Shown here: piece by piece, positions 420 through 15,065 of the stretch
Numbering within the stretch: position 1 is the first letter of the stretch
Layout: every line of letters begins with the position of its first letter
NCBI GenBank assembly: GCA_031362565.1
Contig: JANLSU010000118.1
Coordinates: 1 to 46,402, forward strand
Direction: 5' to 3'
DNA from: a bacterium
Lineage (GTDB): Bacteria; Krumholzibacteriota; Krumholzibacteriia; G020349025
DNA: 46,402 bases
Position numbers and translations under genes: made by a program
The notes under the pieces: model-generated
Seen by the model: only the letters and a program-made list of their open reading frames with translations
Database searches by the model: none
Told to the model about the DNA's origin: nothing

Positions 420-1589
420 CTAGCGCAACATCTCCAAGCGCAACACACCACCCTGAAGCAGACCGACGTATCCGGTGTGCCCATGCCAGGCGAGACCGCG
501 TGGGCTACCATCGACGTCGCAACCGCCGACCTCGCCACCGTTCGTGAGATCAAGCACGATGATACGTCCCGGGTAGCCCACGAGAGCCTTGTTGTCCTGC
601 AGTGCCGGCCGGAACGTCGACCAAGGCTTGTGTGCCTGGTACACCCACACCCTTTGCCTGAAGTCCGGCGTCCAGGCCGTGAGACGATTAATCTCATTCG
701 TATCCGTGAGCAATAGGACGATGCTTCCCGCTCTTACGATGTCCCCAAATGGCATCCCACCGACGTCGGCTCGTGGCAATTCCATGCCGTCACCAAGACG
801 CAGCTTATGAATGAAGCCGTCCAGCGTGCCAACCATTACGGTGTCTGCTTGTAGGTGCACTGACGTATTTACTGGGCTCAGAAGTGGTGTTCGCTAAAGG
901 ACACCTCCGGACTTTACGTCGAAGGCATCCACCCACCCAGCGCGCCAGCCGACGACCAGGCGTTCCCCCGCGACCACCGGATCAGAAATGTTGAAGGCAG
1001 GTTCGGTGTCGGGCGGGCCATGGCCATGCCACCGGATCGTGCCGCTCGCGATGTCGACGGCCACGATTTCCGTGTTGCCTGTCATCGCAAATGCGGTTGA
1101 GTCACGCGAGACGATCTGCGAAGGGAAGCCGCCACCTGCGGCGTGTTTCCAGAGCACTGCGCCGGTAGCGCGGTCGAAGGCGTAAAGGTGGCCAATGGAA
1201 TCGGTGTCGGTACCAACAACAAGGATGTTTCCCGCAAGCAGCGGGTCGCCATGGAACTGCGCCGCCGGTCCATCACGCGTGGTGTCGTACGACCAGAGAA
1301 CGTCTCCAGTCGAATCTGCGAGGGCGAAGAGCTTGCCCGAACACGAACCCACGAATACTTGGTGGCCTGCAACTGCAGGCGTGGTGAACACTCAGCCACC
1401 GGTGTCGCGGCGCCACTCGAGTGAACATTCCGTGGATGCGTTGGTGTTGACCGTTGCCCCGAAGAGCAAGTTTGTCACGAACAAACATGGGAGCAGGATT
1501 CGGAGCTGGACCTTCGCCGCATTCGTTGGGAGCGATGTGTTCCATCTCTCAAGGATACGTGCTGGGCTGCAGGCTATGCCGCTTACCAT
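420..1589 (-). CDS. PQQ-like (BamB-type) beta-propeller protein with in-frame TGA (1392-1394, candidate Sec) and in-frame TAG (894-896); may be a pseudogene
   Basis: ORFs 1392..1589, 894..1391 and 420..860 share one frame; propeller repeats (ALADSTGDVLW, AFDRATGAVLW, AVDIASGTIRW, AFDVKSGGVL*); hydrophobic N-terminal stretch; start uncertain. Confidence 0.75.
1365..1394 (-). promoter_or_regulatory. Candidate bacterial SECIS element
   Basis: Minus strand reads UGA, 11 nt, then GCCUGC-AGUU-GCAGGC: perfect 6-bp stem with GU in the apical loop. Confidence 0.55.
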
Positions 1590-2443: not shown

Positions 2444-3592
2444 ATGCGCCGTTCACGCCGAGTCGCCATGTTCTCGCTGTTGCTCCTTTTATCGCCTTCC
2501 TGCAAGAGCAAGGAGGCGGCAAAACCAGCGGCGGAATCCGAAGCTGGGGTGGTCCTTCTGACTCCCGAGCAAGTATCCCACGCGGGATTCACCACGGCCG
2601 TCGCACAGAGGCGCGAGGCCTCTGAAATCGTGAAGCTCCCGGGCATGCTCGAGGTCGACCCGCATCGCACGTGGCGTGTATCTCCCGTTGTGGAGGGTGT
2701 GGTTGAAGAAGTCGGGGCGATGGCCCACGACGCGGTCCGCAAGGGCCAAGTGCTGGCGCGTTTGCGAAGCACCGCTCTCGGAGAGGCGCAGGTTGCCTGG
2801 CTCGACGCGCGCGCAAATCTTCGACTCGCGCACGCCGACCGCGAACGCAATCTGGCGCTTCGAAAGGACGGTGTCGTCTCTGAGAGCCAATGGCTCCGAG
2901 TCGACACGGAGTTCCAGCGGGCTCAAGCGGCATTGGCGCAGGCCGATCGCAAACTTCAGCTGGCCGGTCTGTCGCCGCGCCAAATCGAGGCGCTCGAATC
3001 ATCGGAACCCCACCTCGGTGAGATGACGCTCACGAGCCCCGCCAGTGGTGTTGTACTCGCGTCGGCCATTTCGCGAGGTCAGTCGCTTGGTGCCGGCGAG
3101 GATGCCTTCCAGGTCGGCGACCTCTCGACGCTCTGGGTCACCGTTCACGTACCGGTGGCAAGACTTTCGCAGGTTGTGCCAGGAGCGAAGGTGACGGTGC
3201 GCGTATCAGGGAGTCCGGGGACAGGCTGGGACGGCAAACTCGGATCACTGGGCGGCAAAGCGGACGCGGCGGATCAGACGGTTGAAGGACGGGTTGTTGT
3301 CACAAACGAAGGCGGTTTTTTGCGGCCCGGCATGTATGCCGAGGTAGAAGTCGTTGGAGCGCCGCTCCAATCGCTCATGGTGCCGTCTGGAGCCGTTTTC
3401 ACAGTCGGAAACCAGTCGTACATCTTTCAAAAGCTAGCCGCGGGGCGGTACCGGCCCATCGAGGTCAACGCCGGCGCTCCCATGGCGGACTGGACTCCGA
3501 TCGCAGGGCCGAGCGCCAATGCCGGCATGGAAGTCATCGTCGGTGGACTGGCCGAGCTCAAATCACAATGGCTCTACAGCGAGGGCGAATAG
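2444..3592 (+). CDS. Efflux RND periplasmic adaptor (CzcB/CusB family), probable lipoprotein
   Basis: LLLLSPSC signal, lipoyl halves flanking a helical hairpin, DLSTLWV, LRPGMYAEV. Confidence 0.93.
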   Translation: MRRSRRVAMFSLLLLLSPSCKSKEAAKPAAESEAGVVLLTPEQVSHAGFTTAVAQRREASEIVKLPGMLEVDPHRTWRVSPVVEGVVEEVGAMAHDAVRKGQVLARLRSTALGEAQVAWLDARANLRLAHADRERNLALRKDGVVSESQWLRVDTEFQRAQAALAQADRKLQLAGLSPRQIEALESSEPHLGEMTLTSPASGVVLASAISRGQSLGAGEDAFQVGDLSTLWVTVHVPVARLSQVVPGAKVTVRVSGSPGTGWDGKLGSLGGKADAADQTVEGRVVVTNEGGFLRPGMYAEVEVVGAPLQSLMVPSGAVFTVGNQSYIFQKLAAGRYRPIEVNAGAPMADWTPIAGPSANAGMEVIVGGLAELKSQWLYSEGE

Positions 3593-6500
3593 ATGATCGC
3601 CTCAATCATTCGAGCGGCGCTCGTTCAGCGCGTCATGGTGCTCGCGGCCGTGCTCGCGATCGTGGCCGGCGGCATCTGGGCATTTCGCGGCTTGACGATC
3701 GATGCGTTCCCCGACATCTCGACCACCCAGGTGCAGATCGTCGTGAAGGCCCCCGGCATGTCTCCGACCGAAGTCGAGCAGCGCATCGCCATGCCCATCG
3801 AGCGCGAAATGCAAGGAATTCCGCATCAGACGGTGCTGCGGTCCACGACGAAGTTCGCGATCACCAACATCATCATGGATTTCGAGGATGGCACCGACAT
3901 CTACTGGGCTCGGAGCCAAGTGACCGAGCGCCTCAATGCCCTGTGGGGCGACATGCCCGAAGGGGTTGAAGGAGGACTCGGCCCGATCACCAGCCCCCTC
4001 GGCGAGATGTTCATCTACCGGGTCGAAGGAGAAGGCTACTCCAAGGAAGAACTGCGCACGCTGCAAGACTGGGTCATCCGGCCGCGCCTGCGCGCGGTGG
4101 ATGGCGTCGCCGACGTGAACTCCTCCGGCGGGCGGGTACGCGCCTATGAAGTTGTGGCGGACCCCGATCGCCTTGCGGCCCGCGGGCTCGGGCTCGCGGA
4201 GCTCGAGAGCGCGCTCGCGTCGAACAACCGCAATGCCGGCGGTGGCCGTATCGACCGGAACAACGAGATGATTCTTGTTCGAACCGTGGGGAACCTGCGA
4301 GGTATCGAGGACATAAAAGAGGTCACGGTCGCGACGCGTGACGGGATTCCCATCCACGTCGAGGATGTTGCCACGGTACGTATCGGGGCGCTCACCCCAA
4401 ACGGCGGCGTCACCGCGGACGGCGAGGGTGTCGTCGTCTCGGGCCTCGCGCTTTTGCGGAAGGGCGCCAACACCCGGGCAGCCGTTGACGGCGTCAAACG
4501 TGAGGTCGAGCGCCTGGCGTCGGTACTGCCCAAGGGCGTGCACATTGTCCCGGTTTATGACCGCACCGAGTTGATCGAGTCCGCAGTCGGCACCGTGGAG
4601 AAGGCGCTCGGCGAGGCCGTGGTGCTTGTCCTACTGGTACTGCTCATCATGCTCGGGAACCTGCGTAGCGCGCTCACTGCCGCTCTCATCCTGCCGTTGT
4701 CGGTGTTGTCGACCTTCATCCTCATGCGAGTGTTTGGTGTGACCGCGAATTTGATGTCGCTTGGCGGTCTCGGCATTGCGATCGGGATCCTGGTGGACGC
4801 CGCAGTCGTCATCGTCGAGAACGTCCAAACCCAGCTCGCGCGCGCGCCCAAAGGAGTCGACCGACTGCACGTGGTCTTCCGGGCCGCGACGGAAGTCGCT
4901 GGGCCGGTCGTGTCGGGCGTTCTCATCATCATTCTTGTTTTCCTGCCGCTCTTCAGCCTGACGGGGTTGGAGGGCAAGATGTTTCTCCCGTTGGCGCTAA
5001 CGATCTGTTTCGCTCTGGGCGCGTCGCTCCTTCTCTCGCTGACGGTCATCCCGGCGTTGGCGAGCGCGCTGATGCGTGGTGAGGGTGAAGAACACGGCCG
5101 TGTGCAGCGCTTCCTGGGTGGCTTGTACGCACCGGTGGTCGATTGGGCGCTCCGGCGCCGCGCCATTGCCGTCCTCGGCGGAATCGCCGGGCTGGTGCTC
5201 GCGGCCGTGTTGTTCACGCGCCTCGGTGGGGAATTCATGCCGACGCTGGACGAAGGCTCGACCATCGTCATCATCGAGAAACTCCCGAGCGTTTCGCTCG
5301 ATCGTTCGCTCGAACTCGACGCGCCGTACCAAAAGGCAATGATGGAGTTGCCCGAGGTGACTGGTGTCTTCTCACGCACTGGTGTCGACGAACTGGGCAT
5401 GGATCCCATGGGGTTGTACCAGACGGACAACTTCGTCATCACCCGTCCCCGCTCTGAATGGTCGATCACCCCGGCGGAGTTCCAGGAGAAGATTCGCAAG
5501 AAAATGGAGGGGTTCATCGGCATCGTGTTTGCTTTCACGCAGCCCATCGACATGCGCGTTTCCGAGATGCTGACCGGCGTGCGAGCGGCGATGTCGATCC
5601 GCCTGTTCGGCGACGATCTCGCCGTGCTCGAAGAGAAGGCCAAGGAGATCGAGGCAATGCTCGGGAAAGTGGACGGCGCGGTGGACATCTTCCGCGGGCA
5701 AATCTTCGGACAGTCCTACTTGCAGATCGACGTCCGCCACGCTGCGATCGCGCGTTTTGGATTGAGCGCGGAAGACATCAATCGCCTGGTCGAGACGGCG
5801 GTCGCGGGCCGCCGGGTCACGGAAGTGCTCGAGAATGAACGCCAGGTCGGTGTTCTGTTGCGGTACCCCGAAGAAGCTCGTGCAACGCCCGAGGCGATCG
5901 GCGCACTCCTCGTCACGACACCGACCGGCGAACGGGTGCCGCTGAGTGCGCTCGCCGACCTCCATGAAGTGGACGGACCGGTGCAGATCACGCGCGAAGC
6001 CGCACGTCGCTCCGTGGTCATTCAGGCCAACGTCGAGGGCCGCGATGTGGTGGGCTTTGTAGCAGAGGTCCGTAAGCACCTGGCGCAAGACATCACACTG
6101 CCGCAGGGATATTACGTTACGTTCGGTGGACAGTTCGAGAACCAGCAACGCGCCGCCGCTCGACTCGGAATCGTCGTACCACTATCGATTGGTCTGATCT
6201 TCCTCATGTTGTTCGTGAGCTTTGGATCTGTGCGCCACGCCGGCCTCATCCTGTTGAATGTGCCGTTCGCGCTCATCGGTGGTGTGATCAGTCTCGCCGT
6301 ATCCGGACTGTACCTCTCCGTGCCGGCTTCGGTCGGGTTCATCACCCTCTTCGGCGTTGCGGTGTTGAACGGCGTCGTGATGGTGACGTATTTCAATCAG
6401 CTCCGTGCGTCGGGCCGGAGTATCGACCAAGCGGTGCGCGAAGGTGCGGCGCGGCGGCTGCGCCCCGTTCTATTGACAGCGATGATTGCGAGCTTGGGCC

Positions 6501-6676
6501 TGGTTCCGATGCTGATCGCCACCGGACCGGGGTCCGAGATTCAGCGCCCGCTCGCGGTCGTCGTCATCGGCGGTCTGGCAAGTTCCACGCTGCTTACGCT
6601 GGTCTTGCTCCCAACGCTCTACGCTTGGCTCGAGGGGCGCGCGGCGCGGCGCATTTCCAATCGGAGCACGACTTGA
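3593..6676 (+). CDS. CusA/CzcA family heavy-metal RND permease (RND1)
   Basis: 1027 aa; IDAFPDIS, TM4 AIGILVDAAVVIVEN, GGQFENQQRA, RLRPVLLTA, GSEIQRPLAVVVIGGL. Confidence 0.96.
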   Translation: MIASIIRAALVQRVMVLAAVLAIVAGGIWAFRGLTIDAFPDISTTQVQIVVKAPGMSPTEVEQRIAMPIEREMQGIPHQTVLRSTTKFAITNIIMDFEDGTDIYWARSQVTERLNALWGDMPEGVEGGLGPITSPLGEMFIYRVEGEGYSKEELRTLQDWVIRPRLRAVDGVADVNSSGGRVRAYEVVADPDRLAARGLGLAELESALASNNRNAGGGRIDRNNEMILVRTVGNLRGIEDIKEVTVATRDGIPIHVEDVATVRIGALTPNGGVTADGEGVVVSGLALLRKGANTRAAVDGVKREVERLASVLPKGVHIVPVYDRTELIESAVGTVEKALGEAVVLVLLVLLIMLGNLRSALTAALILPLSVLSTFILMRVFGVTANLMSLGGLGIAIGILVDAAVVIVENVQTQLARAPKGVDRLHVVFRAATEVAGPVVSGVLIIILVFLPLFSLTGLEGKMFLPLALTICFALGASLLLSLTVIPALASALMRGEGEEHGRVQRFLGGLYAPVVDWALRRRAIAVLGGIAGLVLAAVLFTRLGGEFMPTLDEGSTIVIIEKLPSVSLDRSLELDAPYQKAMMELPEVTGVFSRTGVDELGMDPMGLYQTDNFVITRPRSEWSITPAEFQEKIRKKMEGFIGIVFAFTQPIDMRVSEMLTGVRAAMSIRLFGDDLAVLEEKAKEIEAMLGKVDGAVDIFRGQIFGQSYLQIDVRHAAIARFGLSAEDINRLVETAVAGRRVTEVLENERQVGVLLRYPEEARATPEAIGALLVTTPTGERVPLSALADLHEVDGPVQITREAARRSVVIQANVEGRDVVGFVAEVRKHLAQDITLPQGYYVTFGGQFENQQRAAARLGIVVPLSIGLIFLMLFVSFGSVRHAGLILLNVPFALIGGVISLAVSGLYLSVPASVGFITLFGVAVLNGVVMVTYFNQLRASGRSIDQAVREGAARRLRPVLLTAMIASLGLVPMLIATGPGSEIQRPLAVVVIGGLASSTLLTLVLLPTLYAWLEGRAARRISNRSTT

Positions 6677-6978
6677 AGAAACTCGCAATGATCGTCAGCT
6701 CGAGCGTCTATCAGGCCGTCACGGATCAACTTCGCGCGCTCGGAGTTGCCGGGTTCACGGTTTCACACATCGAAGGACACGGCCCCCATACCGACGAAGA
6801 TCAGTTCGTATCGGCACGTGATCGCGTCGTTGGGTTCGTCCCGCGCGTTCGCGTCGACATCGTACTCCCGGAGGAACAAATGACGACCGTTCTCGATGCA
6901 CTCTGCAGTCCGGGTACCGGACTCGCCGGGCATGGCGTCTTTTGGGTGTCGTCCGTTGAACGTTTCGGTCAATTCTAG
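6673..6978 (+). CDS. P-II family (GlnB-like) protein
   Basis: TTG start overlapping the RND1 stop, GGAG upstream; MKKLAMIV..LRALGVAGFTVSHIEGHG..PRVRVDIV..GHGVFWVSSVE follows the P-II pattern. Confidence 0.82.
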   Translation: MKKLAMIVSSSVYQAVTDQLRALGVAGFTVSHIEGHGPHTDEDQFVSARDRVVGFVPRVRVDIVLPEEQMTTVLDALCSPGTGLAGHGVFWVSSVERFGQF

Positions 6979-6997
6979 GCGCCGACGGAGGATATGA

Positions 6998-8158
6998 ATG
7001 TTTCCACTCTTGGCTCTCCTGATGTTACTCACGACAGCCACCGCGCTGACGCCCGAGGACGCCGTACGAGCTGCGTTGCTGCACGACCCCGCGCTCGCTG
7101 CACGCGTTGGCGAACTCGATGCAGCAACCGGCTTGCGCCGGGAGGGCTTCCTCTTGCGCCACAACCCCGAAGTCGACGTTTCGGTCTCGACGGATGGCAC
7201 TCGGCGCACGGGTGCCGTCGTGCAACCGCTGTCGATTACTGGTGAGGGCATCAATGCGGCCAGGCATGCTCGCGCCAACCTCGATGCCGCGAAAGCTTCT
7301 GCCGACCGCGCCCGCTTCGAGACCGCGGCGACGACGCGGCGCGCCTACGCCCGCGCCGTACTGGCCCGAGAGTTACTCCGTTTGGCGGACGAGGACCGGA
7401 CGCTGCTTGCGAGGCTGCGTAGCGTCGCCGAAGCAAGAGTCGCCGCCGGTGAAGGCGTCGACCTGGACTTGCGACTGGCGCGACTGGAACAAGCTCGCGC
7501 GATGGCAGCTTGGCTCGATGCGCAAGCCCAAGCGTCCGCGGCCGACGCGGAACTCGCGGCGCTCACCGGAGTCATCCCAGGTGAATTGGCGCGAGATCCA
7601 CTCACGGCCGGTCGAGCGGAGGTGGGGGATGCCAACCCTCGGTCTGATCTGGTCGCGGTCAAGGCCGCAACCCGCGCCGCACGTGCGGCGGTCGGTCGCG
7701 AGCGCGCCGCGGTTCTTCCCGCTATCGGGTTGGGCGCCTTCTACGAAAAGGATTCCGGCACGGAAATCTTCGGACCGTCCGTTACGGTAGAGGTGCCGCT
7801 CTGGAACTGGAACCGCCCCGGACTCGGCGTCGCGCGTGGCAATCTGCGCCTTGCCGAGGCTGTGGAGGCCTCGACAGCGGCACGAGCGGCGACGGAGGAA
7901 GCGCGCGCCGCGGAACGGTTGCGCGTCGCCGAGGAATCACTCGCGACACTTGCTCCCGACATTGGCGCCGAAGCAGCGCCTGCGCTCCGCGCGATCGAAG
8001 GCCTCTTCACGTCCGGTGAAGCGAATTTGGCGGACACGTTGCTCCTGAGGTCTCGCATCGTCGAAGGCGAGCGAGCATGGATGGAGGCGCATGCCGCAGT
8101 TGCGGTCGCGCGGATCGACGTCGCGCTGACCAGGCAGTCGGCAAGCTTGCTCCCGTGA
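6998..8158 (+). CDS. TolC family outer membrane efflux protein
   Basis: GGAGG RBS, signal peptide, LTPEDAVRAALLHDP, VEVPLWNWN, Ala/Arg-rich helices. Confidence 0.88.
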   Translation: MFPLLALLMLLTTATALTPEDAVRAALLHDPALAARVGELDAATGLRREGFLLRHNPEVDVSVSTDGTRRTGAVVQPLSITGEGINAARHARANLDAAKASADRARFETAATTRRAYARAVLARELLRLADEDRTLLARLRSVAEARVAAGEGVDLDLRLARLEQARAMAAWLDAQAQASAADAELAALTGVIPGELARDPLTAGRAEVGDANPRSDLVAVKAATRAARAAVGRERAAVLPAIGLGAFYEKDSGTEIFGPSVTVEVPLWNWNRPGLGVARGNLRLAEAVEASTAARAATEEARAAERLRVAEESLATLAPDIGAEAAPALRAIEGLFTSGEANLADTLLLRSRIVEGERAWMEAHAAVAVARIDVALTRQSASLLP

Positions 8159-8962: not shown

Positions 8963-10390
8963 GTGGACTCTGTTCAGAATCGAACCCGTGGGTGGAACCA
9001 ACCGGTTCGCGTCCTGGCGGTCGCGCTCGGCGTGGCGTTCGCGCCGGCCAGCGGGCAGGCTCAGCCGACGGCCGGAACGGAACCAGCGCGCGTGACTTTG
9101 ACGCGAACATCGCGAGCGGCGGTCCCTACGCTGCCCTCGCCCCTCGCGGTAAGCGCCGCCCAGGAATTTGCCCGGCAACACCACCCCGACCTTCAGATGT
9201 CGCTCGCGGATGTCGAGATCACCCGCGCGGATTCCTTTGCCGCAACGATTCGCCCCTTCAATCCGGAGTTGGAACTCAGCCTATCCCGCGGCGGAGAATC
9301 ACTCACTTCCCGCGAAGAAGGGTCTGTGGCCGTGAGTGTGAGCCAAGAGTTCGACCCCTGGCGCAAGGGGCGCTCTCGGCGGGCGTTAGCTGCCGCGCGC
9401 CTCCGAACTGCGGAGGCTCAATTGGCATTGCGCCAGCAACAACTCGAATCGCAAGTCCGGAGTCGATTCCAGAAGGCGCTATTCCTCCAGAACCGTGTTC
9501 AACTTCTCGCGTCACTCGCTCAACAAGAACAAAAGATCGTCGCGGCGACCCAATCCCGCGTGCGGGAGGAATCGGTGACGCCGCTCACTGGTCGCCTCAC
9601 GGAGTTGGACTGGGTGCGGATCGAGAAGGAATTGCTAGTGGCCCAAGGCGATTCACGGCAGGCCGTCTTGGCTCTCGCGGCCGCAACAGGTGGCATTCCC
9701 CCTGAGGGCATCCAACTCGTCGGGACATTCGAACCCGACAGTCTCGGCGTAGGCGAAGACTCCCTGGTGGCAATGGCAGTTGTGAATCGGCGCGACTCGA
9801 AAGCCCTGGAAGAGCGAGTCGCGGACCGACAAGCGGAATTGCGTTTCGCGCGCGTCGACGGACGCCCGAATGTGCGCCTGAGCGCCGGAATTTCGCGCGA
9901 GAGAAGCGGCTTCCGTGGCTCGGATTTCACTGGCGATCCGGCCGTTATTGGCGGAATTGACGCGCTGGAAGCGATCGACCATCACTTCGAGGCCAGGGTC
10001 TCAGTGCCGCTTCCTCTTTGGCAGCGAAACCAAGGCTCGCAAGCGCGCGCGGTCGCCGAAGTCAACCAGGCGCAGACTGCGCTCTTGCGTTCCAGTTTTG
10101 ATATCGAAGTCGAAGTCCGCGCTGCTGCCCGCGCATTCGACGACGCACTGCGACTCTACCGACTTTACTCCCGCCGCGCAGAGCGCACGCGTAGTGATCT
10201 TGCGCTCGTACGCGGCGCGTACGCCGACGGCAGGATCTCCTTGGATTCGTATCTCACACAGAAGGGGCGCCTCGTGGACACGCTGCTCGATCAGCTCGAG
10301 GCGGAAGACCGCTACTGGGAAACGCGCGGGCGCGTCGAGGTCGCGACGGGAGCGGACTTCGCGACGCTTGTCCGTGGAGGTTCGAAATGA
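8963..10390 (+). CDS. TolC family outer membrane efflux protein
   Basis: Signal peptide, NPELEL, VSQEF, SVPLPLWQRNQG; stop overlaps the next ATG. Confidence 0.9.
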   Translation: MDSVQNRTRGWNQPVRVLAVALGVAFAPASGQAQPTAGTEPARVTLTRTSRAAVPTLPSPLAVSAAQEFARQHHPDLQMSLADVEITRADSFAATIRPFNPELELSLSRGGESLTSREEGSVAVSVSQEFDPWRKGRSRRALAAARLRTAEAQLALRQQQLESQVRSRFQKALFLQNRVQLLASLAQQEQKIVAATQSRVREESVTPLTGRLTELDWVRIEKELLVAQGDSRQAVLALAAATGGIPPEGIQLVGTFEPDSLGVGEDSLVAMAVVNRRDSKALEERVADRQAELRFARVDGRPNVRLSAGISRERSGFRGSDFTGDPAVIGGIDALEAIDHHFEARVSVPLPLWQRNQGSQARAVAEVNQAQTALLRSSFDIEVEVRAAARAFDDALRLYRLYSRRAERTRSDLALVRGAYADGRISLDSYLTQKGRLVDTLLDQLEAEDRYWETRGRVEVATGADFATLVRGGSK

Positions 10391-11874
10391 GACGGCCCTC
10401 ATTGAGTCTTGCCGTTTGCGTGGCGCTTCTCGGCGCCGCGAGTCTCGTGTTTGCGCACGAAGGGGAAGAGCACGGGGCGGCAGCCGCAAAGCAAGCCGCA
10501 GCTCCAGCGATTCACACCCTCACCGCCACCTCTGAAGACTTTGAACTCGTGATGAAGAACAAGCCGTTGGTTCCCGGCAAGCAGGGTCAGGTCAACTTCT
10601 ACCTGAACGAATTTGCGACGAATGAACCCGTCGCGGGAGCCTCGATTCAGATCCGAATGAACGGACAGGACGACAGCCACCCACTTTGGAGCGGTGACGC
10701 CGCGGCGACTGTGTCACCAGGCATCTACACCGCCCAGGTGACCGCCGCGGACACGGGGTCCACGACTGTAATCGTTGCGATCCAGGTGGGAGCCCGGCAT
10801 GACGACTTCGCACTCGCGGGGCTCGAGATCGGAGTCGCGGGGAACGCGTCCGCGCTGCCTAACGGGCGCGTTGGAACGATTGTGGCTTGGGTTGGCGCTG
10901 GTCTCGTGTTGATTCTCACAGTGGTCGGCCTGTGGCGGCGCCGGCGCACGCACCCTGCCGCAGTCCTGCTCTTTGCCCTCATATTCCCGCTCGCCGAGGG
11001 ACGCGCGCACGAGGGACACGACGACGCCCCCACTGCCTCGAGTCAGGCGCTCGAACCGGGGGCTGTGGTGTACATGGCCAAGGAGTCGCAGTTCCTTCTT
11101 GGCGTGCGAACCATGCCGGTCGCGTTCGAGGACATCCAGAATTCGCTGCACGTTCAAGGCCGGGTTGCGCCGCGGAGCGGCGGGGAACTCGAAGTCGTCG
11201 CGCCGCAGTCAGGCCGGATCTACTTTCCGGGCGGCCGAGTCCCTCTACTCGGCGCCCATGTAAAACGTGGCGATGTTGTCGCGACGCTCGTCATCGTCGA
11301 TTCACTCCACATTCGAGCTGCGATTGCGGGCGTCGTCACGGAGGCGCCCCTGGTCAACGGCCAACTTGTAGAAGCCGGGCAGCGGATTCTGCGCATTCTC
11401 GATTCCTCCGTTCTCTGGGTGCACGCGGATGTTTACGAGCGCGATCTAGGAGCCGTCGAAGCCTCCAAAACCGCACTCATCTCGTCCCCCGGGTTTCCAG
11501 GGCAAGTCTTTCCCGGCCGGCGTGTTGCTGTCGGGGCGAGTCTCGGGGAAGTGCAAGGCACGGTAGAGACCTACTTCGAGACCCCGAATCCCGGCGGCCG
11601 GCTGCGCGTCGGGATGTTGGTGGATGTTCAGATTCAGCAAGGGGAATCCCGCCCGACGCTCGTCGTGCCACGCTCCGCGTTGAGCGAAAAGGATGGGCGC
11701 AAACTCGTCTTCGTGCACACGGGGCCGGAACGTTTCGCGGCGCGCGAAGTGCGAATCGTGTCCAACCTAGGAGATCGGGTCTCCGTCGACGGCACGCTCG
11801 CTGCCGGCGAACGCGTCGTCACCTCTGGTAGCTACCAACTGCTGAGCGCACCTGTCCTCGGTCTCGCAGAGTAG
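10387..11874 (+). CDS. Efflux RND periplasmic adaptor with N-terminal extra domain
   Basis: KESQFLLGVRT, APQSGRI, LWVHADVYERD, LRVGMLVDV, VVPRSAL, GERVVTSG. Confidence 0.88.
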   Translation: MRRPSLSLAVCVALLGAASLVFAHEGEEHGAAAAKQAAAPAIHTLTATSEDFELVMKNKPLVPGKQGQVNFYLNEFATNEPVAGASIQIRMNGQDDSHPLWSGDAAATVSPGIYTAQVTAADTGSTTVIVAIQVGARHDDFALAGLEIGVAGNASALPNGRVGTIVAWVGAGLVLILTVVGLWRRRRTHPAAVLLFALIFPLAEGRAHEGHDDAPTASSQALEPGAVVYMAKESQFLLGVRTMPVAFEDIQNSLHVQGRVAPRSGGELEVVAPQSGRIYFPGGRVPLLGAHVKRGDVVATLVIVDSLHIRAAIAGVVTEAPLVNGQLVEAGQRILRILDSSVLWVHADVYERDLGAVEASKTALISSPGFPGQVFPGRRVAVGASLGEVQGTVETYFETPNPGGRLRVGMLVDVQIQQGESRPTLVVPRSALSEKDGRKLVFVHTGPERFAAREVRIVSNLGDRVSVDGTLAAGERVVTSGSYQLLSAPVLGLAE

Positions 11875-11885
11875 GCGGAGGAGAG

Positions 11886-14800
11886 ATGTTCGACAAAGTC
11901 ATCGCACTCTCGCTCCGCAACCGTCTCGTGGTTGTTGCGCTTGGTGTTCTGCTGCTGATCTACGGTGTCAGGGTCATCGTGGGGCTCCCCGTCGACGTGT
12001 TTCCCGATCTCAACCGGCCCACGGTCACGATCTTGACCGAGGCGCCGGGCCTGGCCCCCGAAGAGGTCGAAACCTTGGTCTCGCTGCCGATCGAAACCAC
12101 GCTGAACGGCGCCCCGGGCGTGCAGCGTGTCCGCTCGAGTTCCGGAATCGGCCTCGGCGTTATTTCGGTCGAGTTCGGCTGGGACACCGACATCTACCGC
12201 GACCGTCAACTCGTCAGCGAGAAGCTCCAACTCGCCACCGATCAGTTGCCGCGGGGCATCGTTCCGGTGATGGGCCCGGTCTCATCGATCATGGGCGAAA
12301 TCATGCTCTTGGCAATGGAAAGCTCGAACGGCGCAACCCAACCGATGGAAATGCGGACGCTTGCGGACTGGGTGATCCGCCAACGCCTACTCACCATCCC
12401 AGGAGTGTCTCAAGTCATTCCCATCGGTGGCGGGGTGAAGCAGTACCAGGTGCGCGTTCATCCGGAGCGACTCACAGCGCTCGGTATTGCGCTGGAGGAT
12501 GTCGAGAAAGCCGTCTCCGGGAGCAACTCCAGCACGACAGGTGGGTATCTGGAGGCGCAGTCGCAGGAGTACCTCATTCGGAACATTGGGCGCATTCAGA
12601 GGCCCGAGGATCTTCTGAATACGGTCGTCGCCACGCGCAACGGCGTGCCTGTGCTCTTGCGCGAAGTGGCGGACGTGGAGCTTGGCATCCTAGCGAAGCG
12701 GGGGGATGGCAGCGTCGACGGCAAACCGGCCGTCATTCTGTCGGTTCAAAAGCAACCGGGTGCCAACACGATCGACCTCACGCACGAGATCGAAAAAGCG
12801 ATTGCAGAGCTGCAGACGTCGCTGCCGGCTGACGTTCGACTCCGGCCCGTTTTCAAGCAGGCAAGTTTCATCGAAGCGGCAATTCACAACGTCGAGCAGG
12901 CGCTTCGGGACGGCGCGATCCTCGTTGTGCTCATCCTATTCCTCTTTCTGCTCAACTTCCGGACCACCGCCATCACCCTGACGGCGATTCCACTCTCGTT
13001 GGTTAGCACAGCCGTCATCATGCACCTCTTCGGAATCACCATTAACACGATGACACTCGGCGGGTTGGCGATTGCGATCGGCGAGTTGGTGGATGACGCT
13101 ATCGTCGACGTCGAGAACGTCTTCCGCCGGCTGAAGGAAAATCGCCACGCGGCGCATCCGCGGCCGGCGATCGAGGTCGTGTACCACGCATCGTCCGAGG
13201 TCAGAAACTCGATCGTTTTCGCAACGGTGCTGGTCGTGCTCGTCTTCTTGCCACTCTTCGCGCTGGGGGGAATTGAGGGGCGTCTTTTCGCACCGCTCGG
13301 TGTCGCCTACGTGGTGTCGATCCTGTCATCGTTTGTCGTCTCAATGACCATTACACCGGCGCTTTGCCTCTACCTCTTGCCGCGCGCAAAGGTCATGGCC
13401 CGCGAGGCAGACTCCATCGTGGTGCGGTGGCTCAAAAGGCTGGACACCCGCCTCCTCGCTTGGACCCTGCCGCGGCCGGGGTGGGTGATCGGCGGGGCGG
13501 CCGCGCTCGTGTTCGCGGCGGTGGCCCTCGTTCCGAGCATGGGTCGTGAGTTCTTGCCGCCTTTCAACGAAGGCACGGCGACGATCAATTTGATTGCCGC
13601 CCCAGGGACATCGCTCAGCGAGTCGAACCGGCTCGGCACGATCGCCGAGCGCGTTCTGCTCGGTGTGCCCGAGGTCGTGTCGACGGGGAGGCGTACGGGT
13701 CGGGCGGAGCTCGACGAGCACGCGGAAGGCGTGAACTACACCGAAATCGACGTGGATTTTCGGCGATCGAATCGGCCGCGCGAGGTCGTTCTGGACGACG
13801 TCCGTGCCCGGCTTTCGCAGATCCCTGGAGTTGTCCTCAACATCGGACAGCCCATCTCACATCGGCTCGACCACTTGCTTTCCGGAGTGCGGGCGCAGAT
13901 CGCGGTAAAACTCTTCGGAAACGACTTGAGCGTGCTGCGCGCGAAGGCCGGTGAGATCGAGAAGGCGATGGGCGCAATCGATGGGGTGGTGGATCTGCAG
14001 GTCGAAAAGCAAGTCCTAGTGCCGCAGATTCGCATTCAGCCTGACCGCGAGGCACTGGCGCGCTATGGGTTGAGCGTCGGCAGTCTGACCGAGATGCTCG
14101 AAACCGCCCTCAACGGCCGGGTCGTGTCGCAGGTGCTCGAGGGTCAACGGACGTTCGATCTCCTCGTGCGCTACGACGAAAAATCGCGCGAGAGCGTGGA
14201 GGCGATTCGCGCCACACTGATTGACACCCCGTCCGGGGCGCGGATCCCACTCGGAATCGTGGCCGCCGTCGAAAACTCGACGGGCCCGAATATCATCCAG
14301 CACGAGAACGTCCAGCGCCGCATCGTCGTTTCGGCGAACGTTCGCGGCCGCGATTTGGGGAGCGTCGTCGGGGACATCCAGAAGAGTGTTCGCGGCCAGG
14401 TGAGGCTTCCGGTCGGCTACTTCGTCACCTACGGCGGACAGTTCGAAAGTCAGGAGTCGGCGACGCGCCTCATTGGGCTACTCAGCCTTTTCTCGTTGGC
14501 CGCGATGTTCCTCGTGCTCTACATGCACTTCCGTTCAGTGCCGATCGTCCTTCAGATCCTTCTCAACATTCCGCTCGCGCTCATCGGCAGCGTCGTCGCG
14601 GTGTTCCTGACGGGCGGGACATTCTCAATCGCCTCACTCGTGGGATTCATCACGCTGACCGGGATCGCATCCCGTAACACCATCATGATGATCTCCCACT
14701 ACCTGCATCTCATGAAGGATGAAGGAGAGGGTTTCGACGCCCAAATGGTGGTCCGCGGATCCTTGGAACGCCTCGTACCGGTGCTCATGACCGCACTCAC

Positions 14801-15065
14801 CGCGGGGCTTGCCCTCATTCCTCTGGTGTTGGCGAAGGGAGAACCCGGCAAGGAAATACTCTACCCGGTCGCGACGGTGATTCTGGGTGGGCTCATCAGC
14901 TCCACTCTCCTGGACACCATTGTGACCCCGGCAGTGTTCTACCGCTTCGGCCGCCGCTCGGCCGAGCGTTATTTGGCGCGGGCGCGCGAGCCGCAGTTCG
15001 AGTTGGTAGCAGCGTCCCCGTTGAGTGCAGCAGGTTCGTTCGCAGACAAAGGAGATCAGTCATGA
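11886..15065 (+). CDS. CusA/CzcA family heavy-metal RND permease (RND2)
   Basis: 1059 aa; VDVFPDLNRPTV, TM4 AIGELVDDAIVDVEN, GRAELDEHAEGV, ERLVPVLMTA. Confidence 0.96.
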   Translation: MFDKVIALSLRNRLVVVALGVLLLIYGVRVIVGLPVDVFPDLNRPTVTILTEAPGLAPEEVETLVSLPIETTLNGAPGVQRVRSSSGIGLGVISVEFGWDTDIYRDRQLVSEKLQLATDQLPRGIVPVMGPVSSIMGEIMLLAMESSNGATQPMEMRTLADWVIRQRLLTIPGVSQVIPIGGGVKQYQVRVHPERLTALGIALEDVEKAVSGSNSSTTGGYLEAQSQEYLIRNIGRIQRPEDLLNTVVATRNGVPVLLREVADVELGILAKRGDGSVDGKPAVILSVQKQPGANTIDLTHEIEKAIAELQTSLPADVRLRPVFKQASFIEAAIHNVEQALRDGAILVVLILFLFLLNFRTTAITLTAIPLSLVSTAVIMHLFGITINTMTLGGLAIAIGELVDDAIVDVENVFRRLKENRHAAHPRPAIEVVYHASSEVRNSIVFATVLVVLVFLPLFALGGIEGRLFAPLGVAYVVSILSSFVVSMTITPALCLYLLPRAKVMAREADSIVVRWLKRLDTRLLAWTLPRPGWVIGGAAALVFAAVALVPSMGREFLPPFNEGTATINLIAAPGTSLSESNRLGTIAERVLLGVPEVVSTGRRTGRAELDEHAEGVNYTEIDVDFRRSNRPREVVLDDVRARLSQIPGVVLNIGQPISHRLDHLLSGVRAQIAVKLFGNDLSVLRAKAGEIEKAMGAIDGVVDLQVEKQVLVPQIRIQPDREALARYGLSVGSLTEMLETALNGRVVSQVLEGQRTFDLLVRYDEKSRESVEAIRATLIDTPSGARIPLGIVAAVENSTGPNIIQHENVQRRIVVSANVRGRDLGSVVGDIQKSVRGQVRLPVGYFVTYGGQFESQESATRLIGLLSLFSLAAMFLVLYMHFRSVPIVLQILLNIPLALIGSVVAVFLTGGTFSIASLVGFITLTGIASRNTIMMISHYLHLMKDEGEGFDAQMVVRGSLERLVPVLMTALTAGLALIPLVLAKGEPGKEILYPVATVILGGLISSTLLDTIVTPAVFYRFGRRSAERYLARAREPQFELVAASPLSAAGSFADKGDQS

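Follow-up and report, generated by a model that had tools for sequence, protein, structure and literature searches.

The window analysed here is a stretch of 46,402 nucleotides (nt) from a bacterium of the Krumholzibacteriota lineage (contig JANLSU010000118.1 of assembly GCA_031362565.1). On its minus strand lies an open reading frame (ORF; 1589–420) for a pyrroloquinoline quinone (PQQ)-like, eight-bladed β-propeller protein, interrupted by an in-frame TGA. We consider it highly likely that this TGA (1394–1392) is the selenocysteine (Sec) codon of an uncatalogued family of exported, BamB-like propeller selenoproteins, that the hairpin directly downstream is its bacterial selenocysteine insertion sequence (bSECIS), and that the window copy itself is most likely a pseudogene. 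The initial annotation, made from the DNA letters alone, had already read the UGA as Sec. None of the refutation tests run went against that reading and, at the level of the family, the comparative sequence evidence leaves us in little doubt that UGA encodes Sec.

Counting its three stop codons, the read-through ORF is 390 codons long: the TGA is codon 66, a second in-frame stop, TAG, follows as codon 232, and a terminal TAG (422–420) closes the family-length frame. The G+C content of the window is 63%. Upon re-reading the minus strand, we recovered the frame originally described, ...ECSLEWRRDTGG-TGA-VFTTPAVAGHQVFVGSCSGKLFAL, with the TGA in the same place and the hairpin 11 nt downstream, which is folded by ViennaRNA. 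The TGA part of that description therefore stands, but it had overlooked the TAG at 896–894. The longest start option is the ATG at 1589–1587, and TTG and GTG options lie 25–30 codons 5' of the TGA. Codons 1–55 (1589–1425) specify a signal-like N-terminal segment, at the place where the homologs carry Sec-type (secretory) or lipoprotein-type signal peptides.

Conservation of the TGA codon among homologs

The comparison covered 90 homologous loci from Acidobacteriota metagenome-assembled genomes (MAGs) and metagenomes, which represent 68–69 unique local sequences with protein identities of 27–76%. The peptide search patterns were placed downstream of the TGA, with the codon itself excluded, and scans of genome and metagenome collections gave 7 + 80 family loci. 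TGA occupies the aligned codon in all 90 loci, comprising 86/86 anchored by a regular expression and 4/4 that the expression had missed; two extra matches, on the opposite strands of L113 and L129, arose by chance and were discarded. Tabulation of the aligned codon, which the initial annotation had proposed as a check, thus returned TGA throughout, with rare Cys forms among the proteins and no homolog with TGG (Trp). In a separate search of 61 genomes, consisting of the window's own and 60 relatives, only the window's own genome, G004 and G021 gave matches better than 1e-30, and the latter two contain one internal TGA each, aligned with codon 66 of the window (..SLDTGG-U-LFCTPEVSG.. and ..FDDTGG-U-IFITPEVSG.., respectively).

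Peptide conservation extends to either side of the TGA. In every complete locus the TGA is preceded by the motif W-x-[FL]-[DE]-T-x-G, together with a signal or lipoprotein-type peptide, some members having lipobox-like signal peptides, and the motif F..P.V.G...GSC follows it. Among the 66 loci that are complete at the 3' end, 62 run for 319–355 aa past the Sec position, L047 and L099 are longer fusions, and the window copy and L049 are cut short. The longer members carry a C-terminal extension of 120–270 residues (595 aa after Sec in L047:4021 and 521 aa in L099:486, against about 330), and P0170, P0178, P0182, P0211 and P0252 also extend past the propeller.

The protein databases hold the family in a truncated form. 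About 100 homologs, 310–365 aa in length, have [M/V]F.TPAVAG as their N-terminus, directly past the TGA. Every member seen has been truncated at this codon by gene callers, so that the entries lack the signal peptide and the first strand. An exhaustive profile search newly listed 147 best matches, at 50%-identity representative level, and 89 longer multi-repeat proteins were excluded from the count. Of the 58 family-sized representatives (≤620 aa), 55 start at or after the post-TGA residue, two are full-length proteins with Cys at the Sec site (P0202, ..AKGCIYSSP.., and P0228, ..AGGCIFVTP..) and one is full-length with Ala (P0224). Three proteins seen earlier, P0005, P0053 and P0085, are truncated as well. 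Since Cys forms are so rare, Sec appears almost obligatory in the family, whose members are distributed over the Acidobacteriota (Thermoanaerobaculia, Holophagales and soil lineages).

A short, conserved hairpin downstream of the TGA

In the window, a spacer of 11 nt (1391–1381) separates the TGA from a hairpin (1380–1365, minus) composed of the 5' arm GCCTGC (1380–1375), the loop AGTT (1374–1371) and the 3' arm GCAGGC (1370–1365), that is, a 6-bp stem GCCUGC/GCAGGC with an apical AGUU loop that begins 17 nt past the UGA. In the SECIS of Escherichia coli fdhF, the upper stem-loop starts 11 nt after the UGA and has GU in its loop.

Across the family, the typical element is a 7-bp stem that starts 10 nt past the TGA, with the loop GGTC in 65 of the 69 unique sequences. 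The AGTT loop is confined to the window's clade (the window, L056/L057 and L060), in which L056 is an intact gene. The stem sequence varies in ways that keep the pairing (CCCCCGC/GCGGGGG, CCCCCGU/ACGGGGG, CGCCGAC/GUCGGCG, CUCCCGA/UCGGGAG and CCCCGGC/GCCGGGG). Over 68 unique rows, 83.2% of the cells are paired (shuffles, 70.9 ± 1.0%) and double-sided changes occur in 46 (shuffles, 18.8); neither value was reached in any of 500 shuffles. When the partner strand was slid by 1–3 columns, pairing dropped to 40–64%. The conserved hairpin that the initial annotation had named as supporting evidence is therefore present and covaries, with compensatory changes.

The published bSECIS model specifies a loop of 3–9 nt, a stem of at least 4 bp, a G in the first two loop positions, a distance of 16–37 nt from the UGA and a minimum free energy of −7.5 kcal/mol or lower (PMC13188914, section 5). 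The bSECIS search proposed at the outset was run against these limits, and the window hairpin passes all four constraints (AGUU as a 4-nt loop with its G in second place, 6 bp, 17 nt and −11.3 kcal/mol for the hairpin region); so do 53 of the 68 unique family sequences. The family element resembles the bacterial consensus in being a stem-loop directly 3' of the UGA within the coding region, with G and then G/U opening a small apical loop (PMC13188914). What sets it apart is its very small size and near-invariance (7 bp plus GGUC), its constant distance of 17 nt and its dual role as coding sequence for the peptide TPAVAG. An Rfam E-value scan of 1200–1600 returned only a chance miRNA match (E 2.6).

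The dual coding has consequences for the protein. The stem overlaps the codons of T-P-A-V-A-G (window 1365–1382; alignment A4, columns 20–37), and the first two bases of codons +6 and +8 pair with each other, which accounts for the residue pairs A/A, E/S, V/T and T/V at these positions. Part of the conservation of the motif T-P-x-V-x-G is accordingly an RNA constraint. Moreover, the loop encodes its Val by GTC in 65/68 sequences, by GTT in 3/68 and by GTG in none, although GTG is the commonest codon directly after the TGA, which argues for selection at the nucleotide level. Such a short, near-invariant element, in which RNA structure appears to dictate amino-acid covariation, could improve bSECIS models for Acidobacteriota.

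Selenocysteine machinery in the carrier genomes

The window's own genome (G000, a 133-contig assembly) encodes the full set of selA, selB, selC and selD that the initial annotation had suggested looking for, with selA at 501 bits, selB at 350 bits, tRNA-Sec at 78.8 bits and a selD with one in-frame TGA, all over their cut-offs. Ten genomes carrying the propeller gene were examined. In eight of them selA scores over the cut-off, and the other two have selB, in one case over the cut-off and in the other as fragments below it. The former, G067, has selB (342 bits) and tRNA-Sec (70.6 bits) over cut-off, and selA was not found there; the latter, G062, is a small MAG of 2.4 Mb in which selA is not over cut-off either. 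The concern that genomes with the TGA might lack the machinery for Sec was thus not borne out in these ten.

The selD gene of the window's genome (L010:975, contig C6 of G000) is itself a selenoprotein gene, with its in-frame TGA in ..SHGAG-U-ACKLQ.. (motif G-U-A-C-K). A hairpin, CGCGCA-GGUCU-UGCGCG, lies about 29 nt past that TGA, and the GGUC in its loop is common to the propeller family.

Propeller fold and the Sec, Cys and His positions

The read-through protein matches Pfam PQQ_2 at 1.4e-25; its match to Pfam PQQ is barely over the cut-off (28.2 bits against 26.7), with no single stretch significant. An AlphaFold2 model built from a 69-sequence alignment has a mean predicted local distance difference test score (pLDDT) of 90.2 and a predicted template modelling score of 0.84, the signal-like segment being at a pLDDT of about 50. 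The model consists of eight four-stranded blades, and the N-terminal strand 56–62, upstream of the TGA, completes blade 8. The best Foldseek matches are BamB structures, with template modelling (TM) scores of 0.72–0.82, a root-mean-square deviation of about 3 Å and 20–21% identity to the proteins of E. coli and Klebsiella.

DSSP assigns strand 56–62, loop 63–71 and strand 72–74, so that Sec66 falls within the loop that leads into strand A of blade 1. The Cys that had been noted 17 residues past the TGA is confirmed as Cys83 (TGT, 1343–1341; motif GSCSG), in the B–C turn of the same blade, and His113 (1253–1251) belongs to the FHGD motif in the D–A loop between blades 1 and 2. Cys83 (GSC.G), Phe112 and His113 are invariant in the alignment, and Asp128 and the Trp and Gly positions of the blades are invariant or nearly so. 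In propeller topology, the D–A and B–C loops share one face. Judging from the DSSP assignment and this usual topology, Sec66, Cys83 (together the motif U-x16-C) and His113 would all lie in loops of one propeller face.

Cys83 is retained in both Cys forms, P0202 and P0228. Among the full-length relatives with Ala (five) or Ser (three) at the Sec site, Cys83 is replaced by V, R or T in 8/8, while the His is kept. The original suggestion that this Cys may be the Se–S partner of the Sec gains support from its invariance and its co-loss with Sec, and Cys83 is a candidate resolving residue. The eight relatives (P0224 and P0269–P0275) form a sister clade of full-length, lipoprotein-type propellers, in which the Sec and Cys83 positions carry the substitutions just given and the His of FH.D is in place; from their sequences, the clade looks like a natural "redox-dead" version of the family.

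Alternative readings of the two in-frame stops

Three other readings of the TGA deserve comparison with the Sec reading. The gene might be a plain pseudogene decaying by a contig end, in which the TGA is a nonsense mutation like the TAG and the hairpin a chance palindrome. The second stop in the same ORF, the unremarkable stability of the hairpin context and the truncated ORF 2–370, which runs off the window start, all fit this picture; the same codon is nevertheless TGA in 90/90 loci, including the 62 copies with a normal 319–355 aa after it, the hairpin is conserved with compensatory changes, no homolog has TGG, and propagation from one contaminating sequence is contradicted by 68 unique sequences at 27–76% identity. 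We regard such an explanation as extremely improbable. An arrangement of two genes, with a short upstream ORF ending at the TGA and the propeller starting at a GTG directly after it, would suit the database proteins that start at [M/V]F.TPAVAG, and the GTG is indeed present in the window and in 31/68 unique sequences. The next codon is ATC, GTC, ATT, GTA, ATA or CTG in the other 37/68, which makes a separate gene starting at that codon untenable; besides, the upstream part holds the signal peptide and supplies the conserved strand 56–62 that closes blade 8 in the model, and the full-length Cys forms are single ORFs. Two genes are accordingly a very poor prospect. As for a genome-wide reassignment of TGA, or TAG, to an ordinary amino acid, the two in-frame stops speak for it and nothing further. 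Both codons act as ordinary stops in the window, where, among 31 ORFs of 300 aa or more, 17 are terminated by TGA and 10 by TAG, including the Pfam-confirmed CusA/CzcA and OEP (outer membrane efflux protein) genes, so that neither is reassigned. In many family genes TGA appears twice, at the Sec site and again as the terminal stop, and a dedicated tRNA-Sec, selA and selB are present; we attach practically no weight to reassignment.

Several observations do weigh against the Sec reading or limit its reach. The folding energy of the window hairpin alone is unremarkable and not above chance: in its 71-nt context z = −0.96 against dinucleotide shuffles, and 26/200 shuffles were as stable. The significance of the hairpin thus comes from its conservation rather than from its folding energy, and because the stem lies inside the codons of TPAVAG, part of that nucleotide conservation is a coding constraint. 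The hairpins of 15/68 sequences miss the published bSECIS model. In 14 of these 15, which belong to a soil subclade with hairpins of the CCAC-GGUCA-GUGG type (4–5 bp, GGUCA loop), only the −7.5 kcal/mol limit is missed, and the hairpin of L098 misses the loop and spacing constraints as well. The co-loss of Sec and Cys83 comes from relatives that belong to one or two related clades, and hence amounts to one or two events. No universal partner gene and no consistent functional clue emerged from the 108 neighbouring ORFs, taken from loci with at least 1.8 kb of flank, and no RNA runs containing the window gene were found.

The state of the window copy is a separate matter, and here we favour, on balance, a recent pseudogene that arose by a TGG-to-TAG change at Trp232. 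The TAG at 896–894 (minus) falls at a codon whose aligned residue is a Trp conserved in at least 90% of the sequences (..GNVLWRRSL.. in L056, ..GGVL*RTPL.. in the window). Only 165 aa separate the Sec from this TAG. In the model, codon 232 maps to blade 4 (strand D); a product ending there would be missing half of the propeller, and the window copy probably does not give rise to a full-length selenoprotein. Past the TAG, the reading frame stays open and none of the invariant residues has been lost, which implies that the change is recent, or else that it is an error or a minority allele; no second copy of the propeller gene was found in the window's own genome. A gene that is intact in the organism, the TAG being an assembly or sequencing error or a minority allele and the window encoding a working selenoprotein, would differ from the assembled letters by the single base that separates TAG from TGG, and the open frame with its invariant residues fits that situation as well. 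The pseudogene reading, moreover, depends on one assembly, of 133 contigs, and on Logan contigs that are probably of the same sample. Against an intact gene stands run X1, possibly the source sample, from which a Logan contig was built independently (3515 nt, k-mer depth 12); this contig is identical to the window over 420–1700 without a differing letter. The contig of run X2 covers only 1185–1489 and is uninformative for the TAG, and run X3 gave no contig that aligned. We therefore judge an intact gene unlikely. With a pseudogene as the favoured reading, the window copy would be annotated as a selenoprotein pseudogene instead of as two small ORFs.

A second interrupted copy was seen in a Thermoanaerobaculia MAG (L049:4048 onward, G067), where the TGA and the hairpin are kept and the frame is shifted about 65 residues past the Sec, leaving 105 aa after it.

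Relation to known proteins and selenoprotein families

The family shares with BamB the eight-bladed PQQ-like fold found by Foldseek and the export from the cytoplasm, and JGI names many members BamB. The likeness is one of fold only, since the NCBIfam scores fall far below the cut-offs for BamB (TIGR03300, 98.1 bits against 285.2; NF008351, 55.9 against 423). The same holds for PQQ dehydrogenases (TIGR03075, 39.2 bits against 480; TIGR03074, 15 against 833), and identity with BamB or with a quinoprotein was rejected on these grounds. The generic PQQ repeats seen (P0109 and P0110) have Ala or Arg at the position of the Sec, and the FHGD motif is specific to the propeller family. In the databases, members are called "PQQ-binding-like beta-propeller repeat protein" or "BamB", and NCBIfam release 20 contains no specific model for the family.

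Tetrathionate hydrolase of Acidithiobacillus ferrooxidans is likewise an extracytoplasmic, cofactor-less, eight-bladed PQQ-like propeller (TMq 0.71; 6l8a and 7cqy), and its substrates are sulfur compounds. It lacks Sec and shares 15% identity, so that the likeness lies in the general fold only. It does show that the fold is able to support chalcogen chemistry in the absence of PQQ.

The 119 prokaryotic selenoprotein families and subfamilies catalogued by Zhang et al. (2026, Table 1; PMC13188914) include no β-propeller, PQQ or BamB-like entry, which bears out, for that catalogue, the initial statement that no characterised selenoprotein with this fold was known. The terms "PQQ", "propeller" and "quinoprotein" are absent from the main texts of the 2026 review, the BSepDB paper and the deep-Sep paper, and "BamB" occurs in the review only as the name of a reference author. 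A literature search for a propeller, PQQ or BamB selenoprotein found none, the BSepDB family list (Table S2) lying outside the comparison. The new family resembles the catalogued ones in having a single Sec in each protein, few homologs with Cys, a Cys close by that suggests a redox pair and a canonical bSECIS. It differs in that U-x16-C is not among the listed UxxC and CxxU types, and in that Sec forms far outnumber Cys forms (55 representatives truncated at U against two). Sec insertion is canonical here; judged from sequence against the 2026 catalogue and NCBIfam, the family and its fold appear new to selenoproteins.

Proposed mechanism and function

During translation, SelB–GTP–Sec-tRNASec would bind the apical loop, which reads GGUC in the majority of members and AGUU in the clade of the window, and the position of the loop 17 nt past the UGA may let the ribosome insert Sec rather than terminate. 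The signal or lipoprotein peptide would then export the protein to the periplasm or to a membrane anchor, so that it would act outside the cytoplasm, where Sec66, Cys83 and His113 may form a selenol/thiol redox centre or a chalcogen- or metal-binding one. In the window copy, translation would stop in blade 4, at the TAG replacing Trp232.

Most known selenoproteins have thioredoxin-like or similar redox folds. An exported Sec β-propeller, in which Sec forms far outnumber Cys forms, would extend selenium biology to a new fold and to a new cellular compartment, and represents a candidate for new enzyme chemistry in abundant soil and sediment bacteria. One tentative possibility is a new class of extracytoplasmic selenoenzyme, in which a cofactor-less propeller uses a top-face centre of Sec66, Cys83 and His113 for the selenol-based redox conversion or capture of small S, Se or metal(loid) compounds in the periplasm of Acidobacteriota from soils and sediments. 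The hints for such a function come from scattered neighbours only, namely mddA in L100, S-adenosylmethionine (SAM) methyltransferases at five loci, and CopA, ArsR and CusA/CzcA-type efflux.

Gene neighbourhood

In L100, a methanethiol S-methyltransferase gene, mddA, lies directly 5' of the propeller gene (L100:2129–2848; NF045656, 357 bits against a cut-off of 270), itself preceded by a class-I SAM methyltransferase gene. Class-I SAM methyltransferase genes adjoin five loci in all (L100, L058, L064, L085 and L088). L049 adjoins copA, L070 adjoins arsR and a major facilitator superfamily (MFS) gene, and the window copy adjoins CusA/CzcA-type efflux.

In the soil subclade (L104, L105, L106, L111, L113, L114, L118 and L135), a Peptidase_S13 gene, for a D-Ala-D-Ala carboxypeptidase of the PBP4 (penicillin-binding protein 4) type, is located directly 5' in the same orientation. 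In the loci whose contig includes that gene in full (L104, L105, L106, L113 and L118), its end abuts the selenoprotein start, and a coenzyme A (CoA)-transferase III gene is often found downstream. This arrangement, Peptidase_S13 on the 5' side and CoA-transferase III on the 3' side, was considered as a clue to function and rejected, as it occurs in one soil subclade only and is probably inherited synteny. The members of this subclade also have the weaker hairpin, CCAC-GGUCA-GUGG, as well as additional conserved Cys residues (..TDxxC.., ..AGNC.. and ..KGC..).

Within the window, a plus-strand ORF at 2–370 runs off the window start and stops right next to the propeller gene's 3' end; Pfam gave no match to it at 1e-4. 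On the other side, a small His-rich ORF (1874–2254, plus), which has no family match, lies 5' of two consecutive efflux sets of the heavy-metal resistance-nodulation-division (RND) type. The first set (2444–8158, plus) comprises a CzcB/CusB-like adaptor, a CusA/CzcA pump (1050 bits) and an OEP gene, and the second (8963–15065, plus) an OEP gene, an adaptor and a second pump of the AcrB family (ACR_tran, Pfam).

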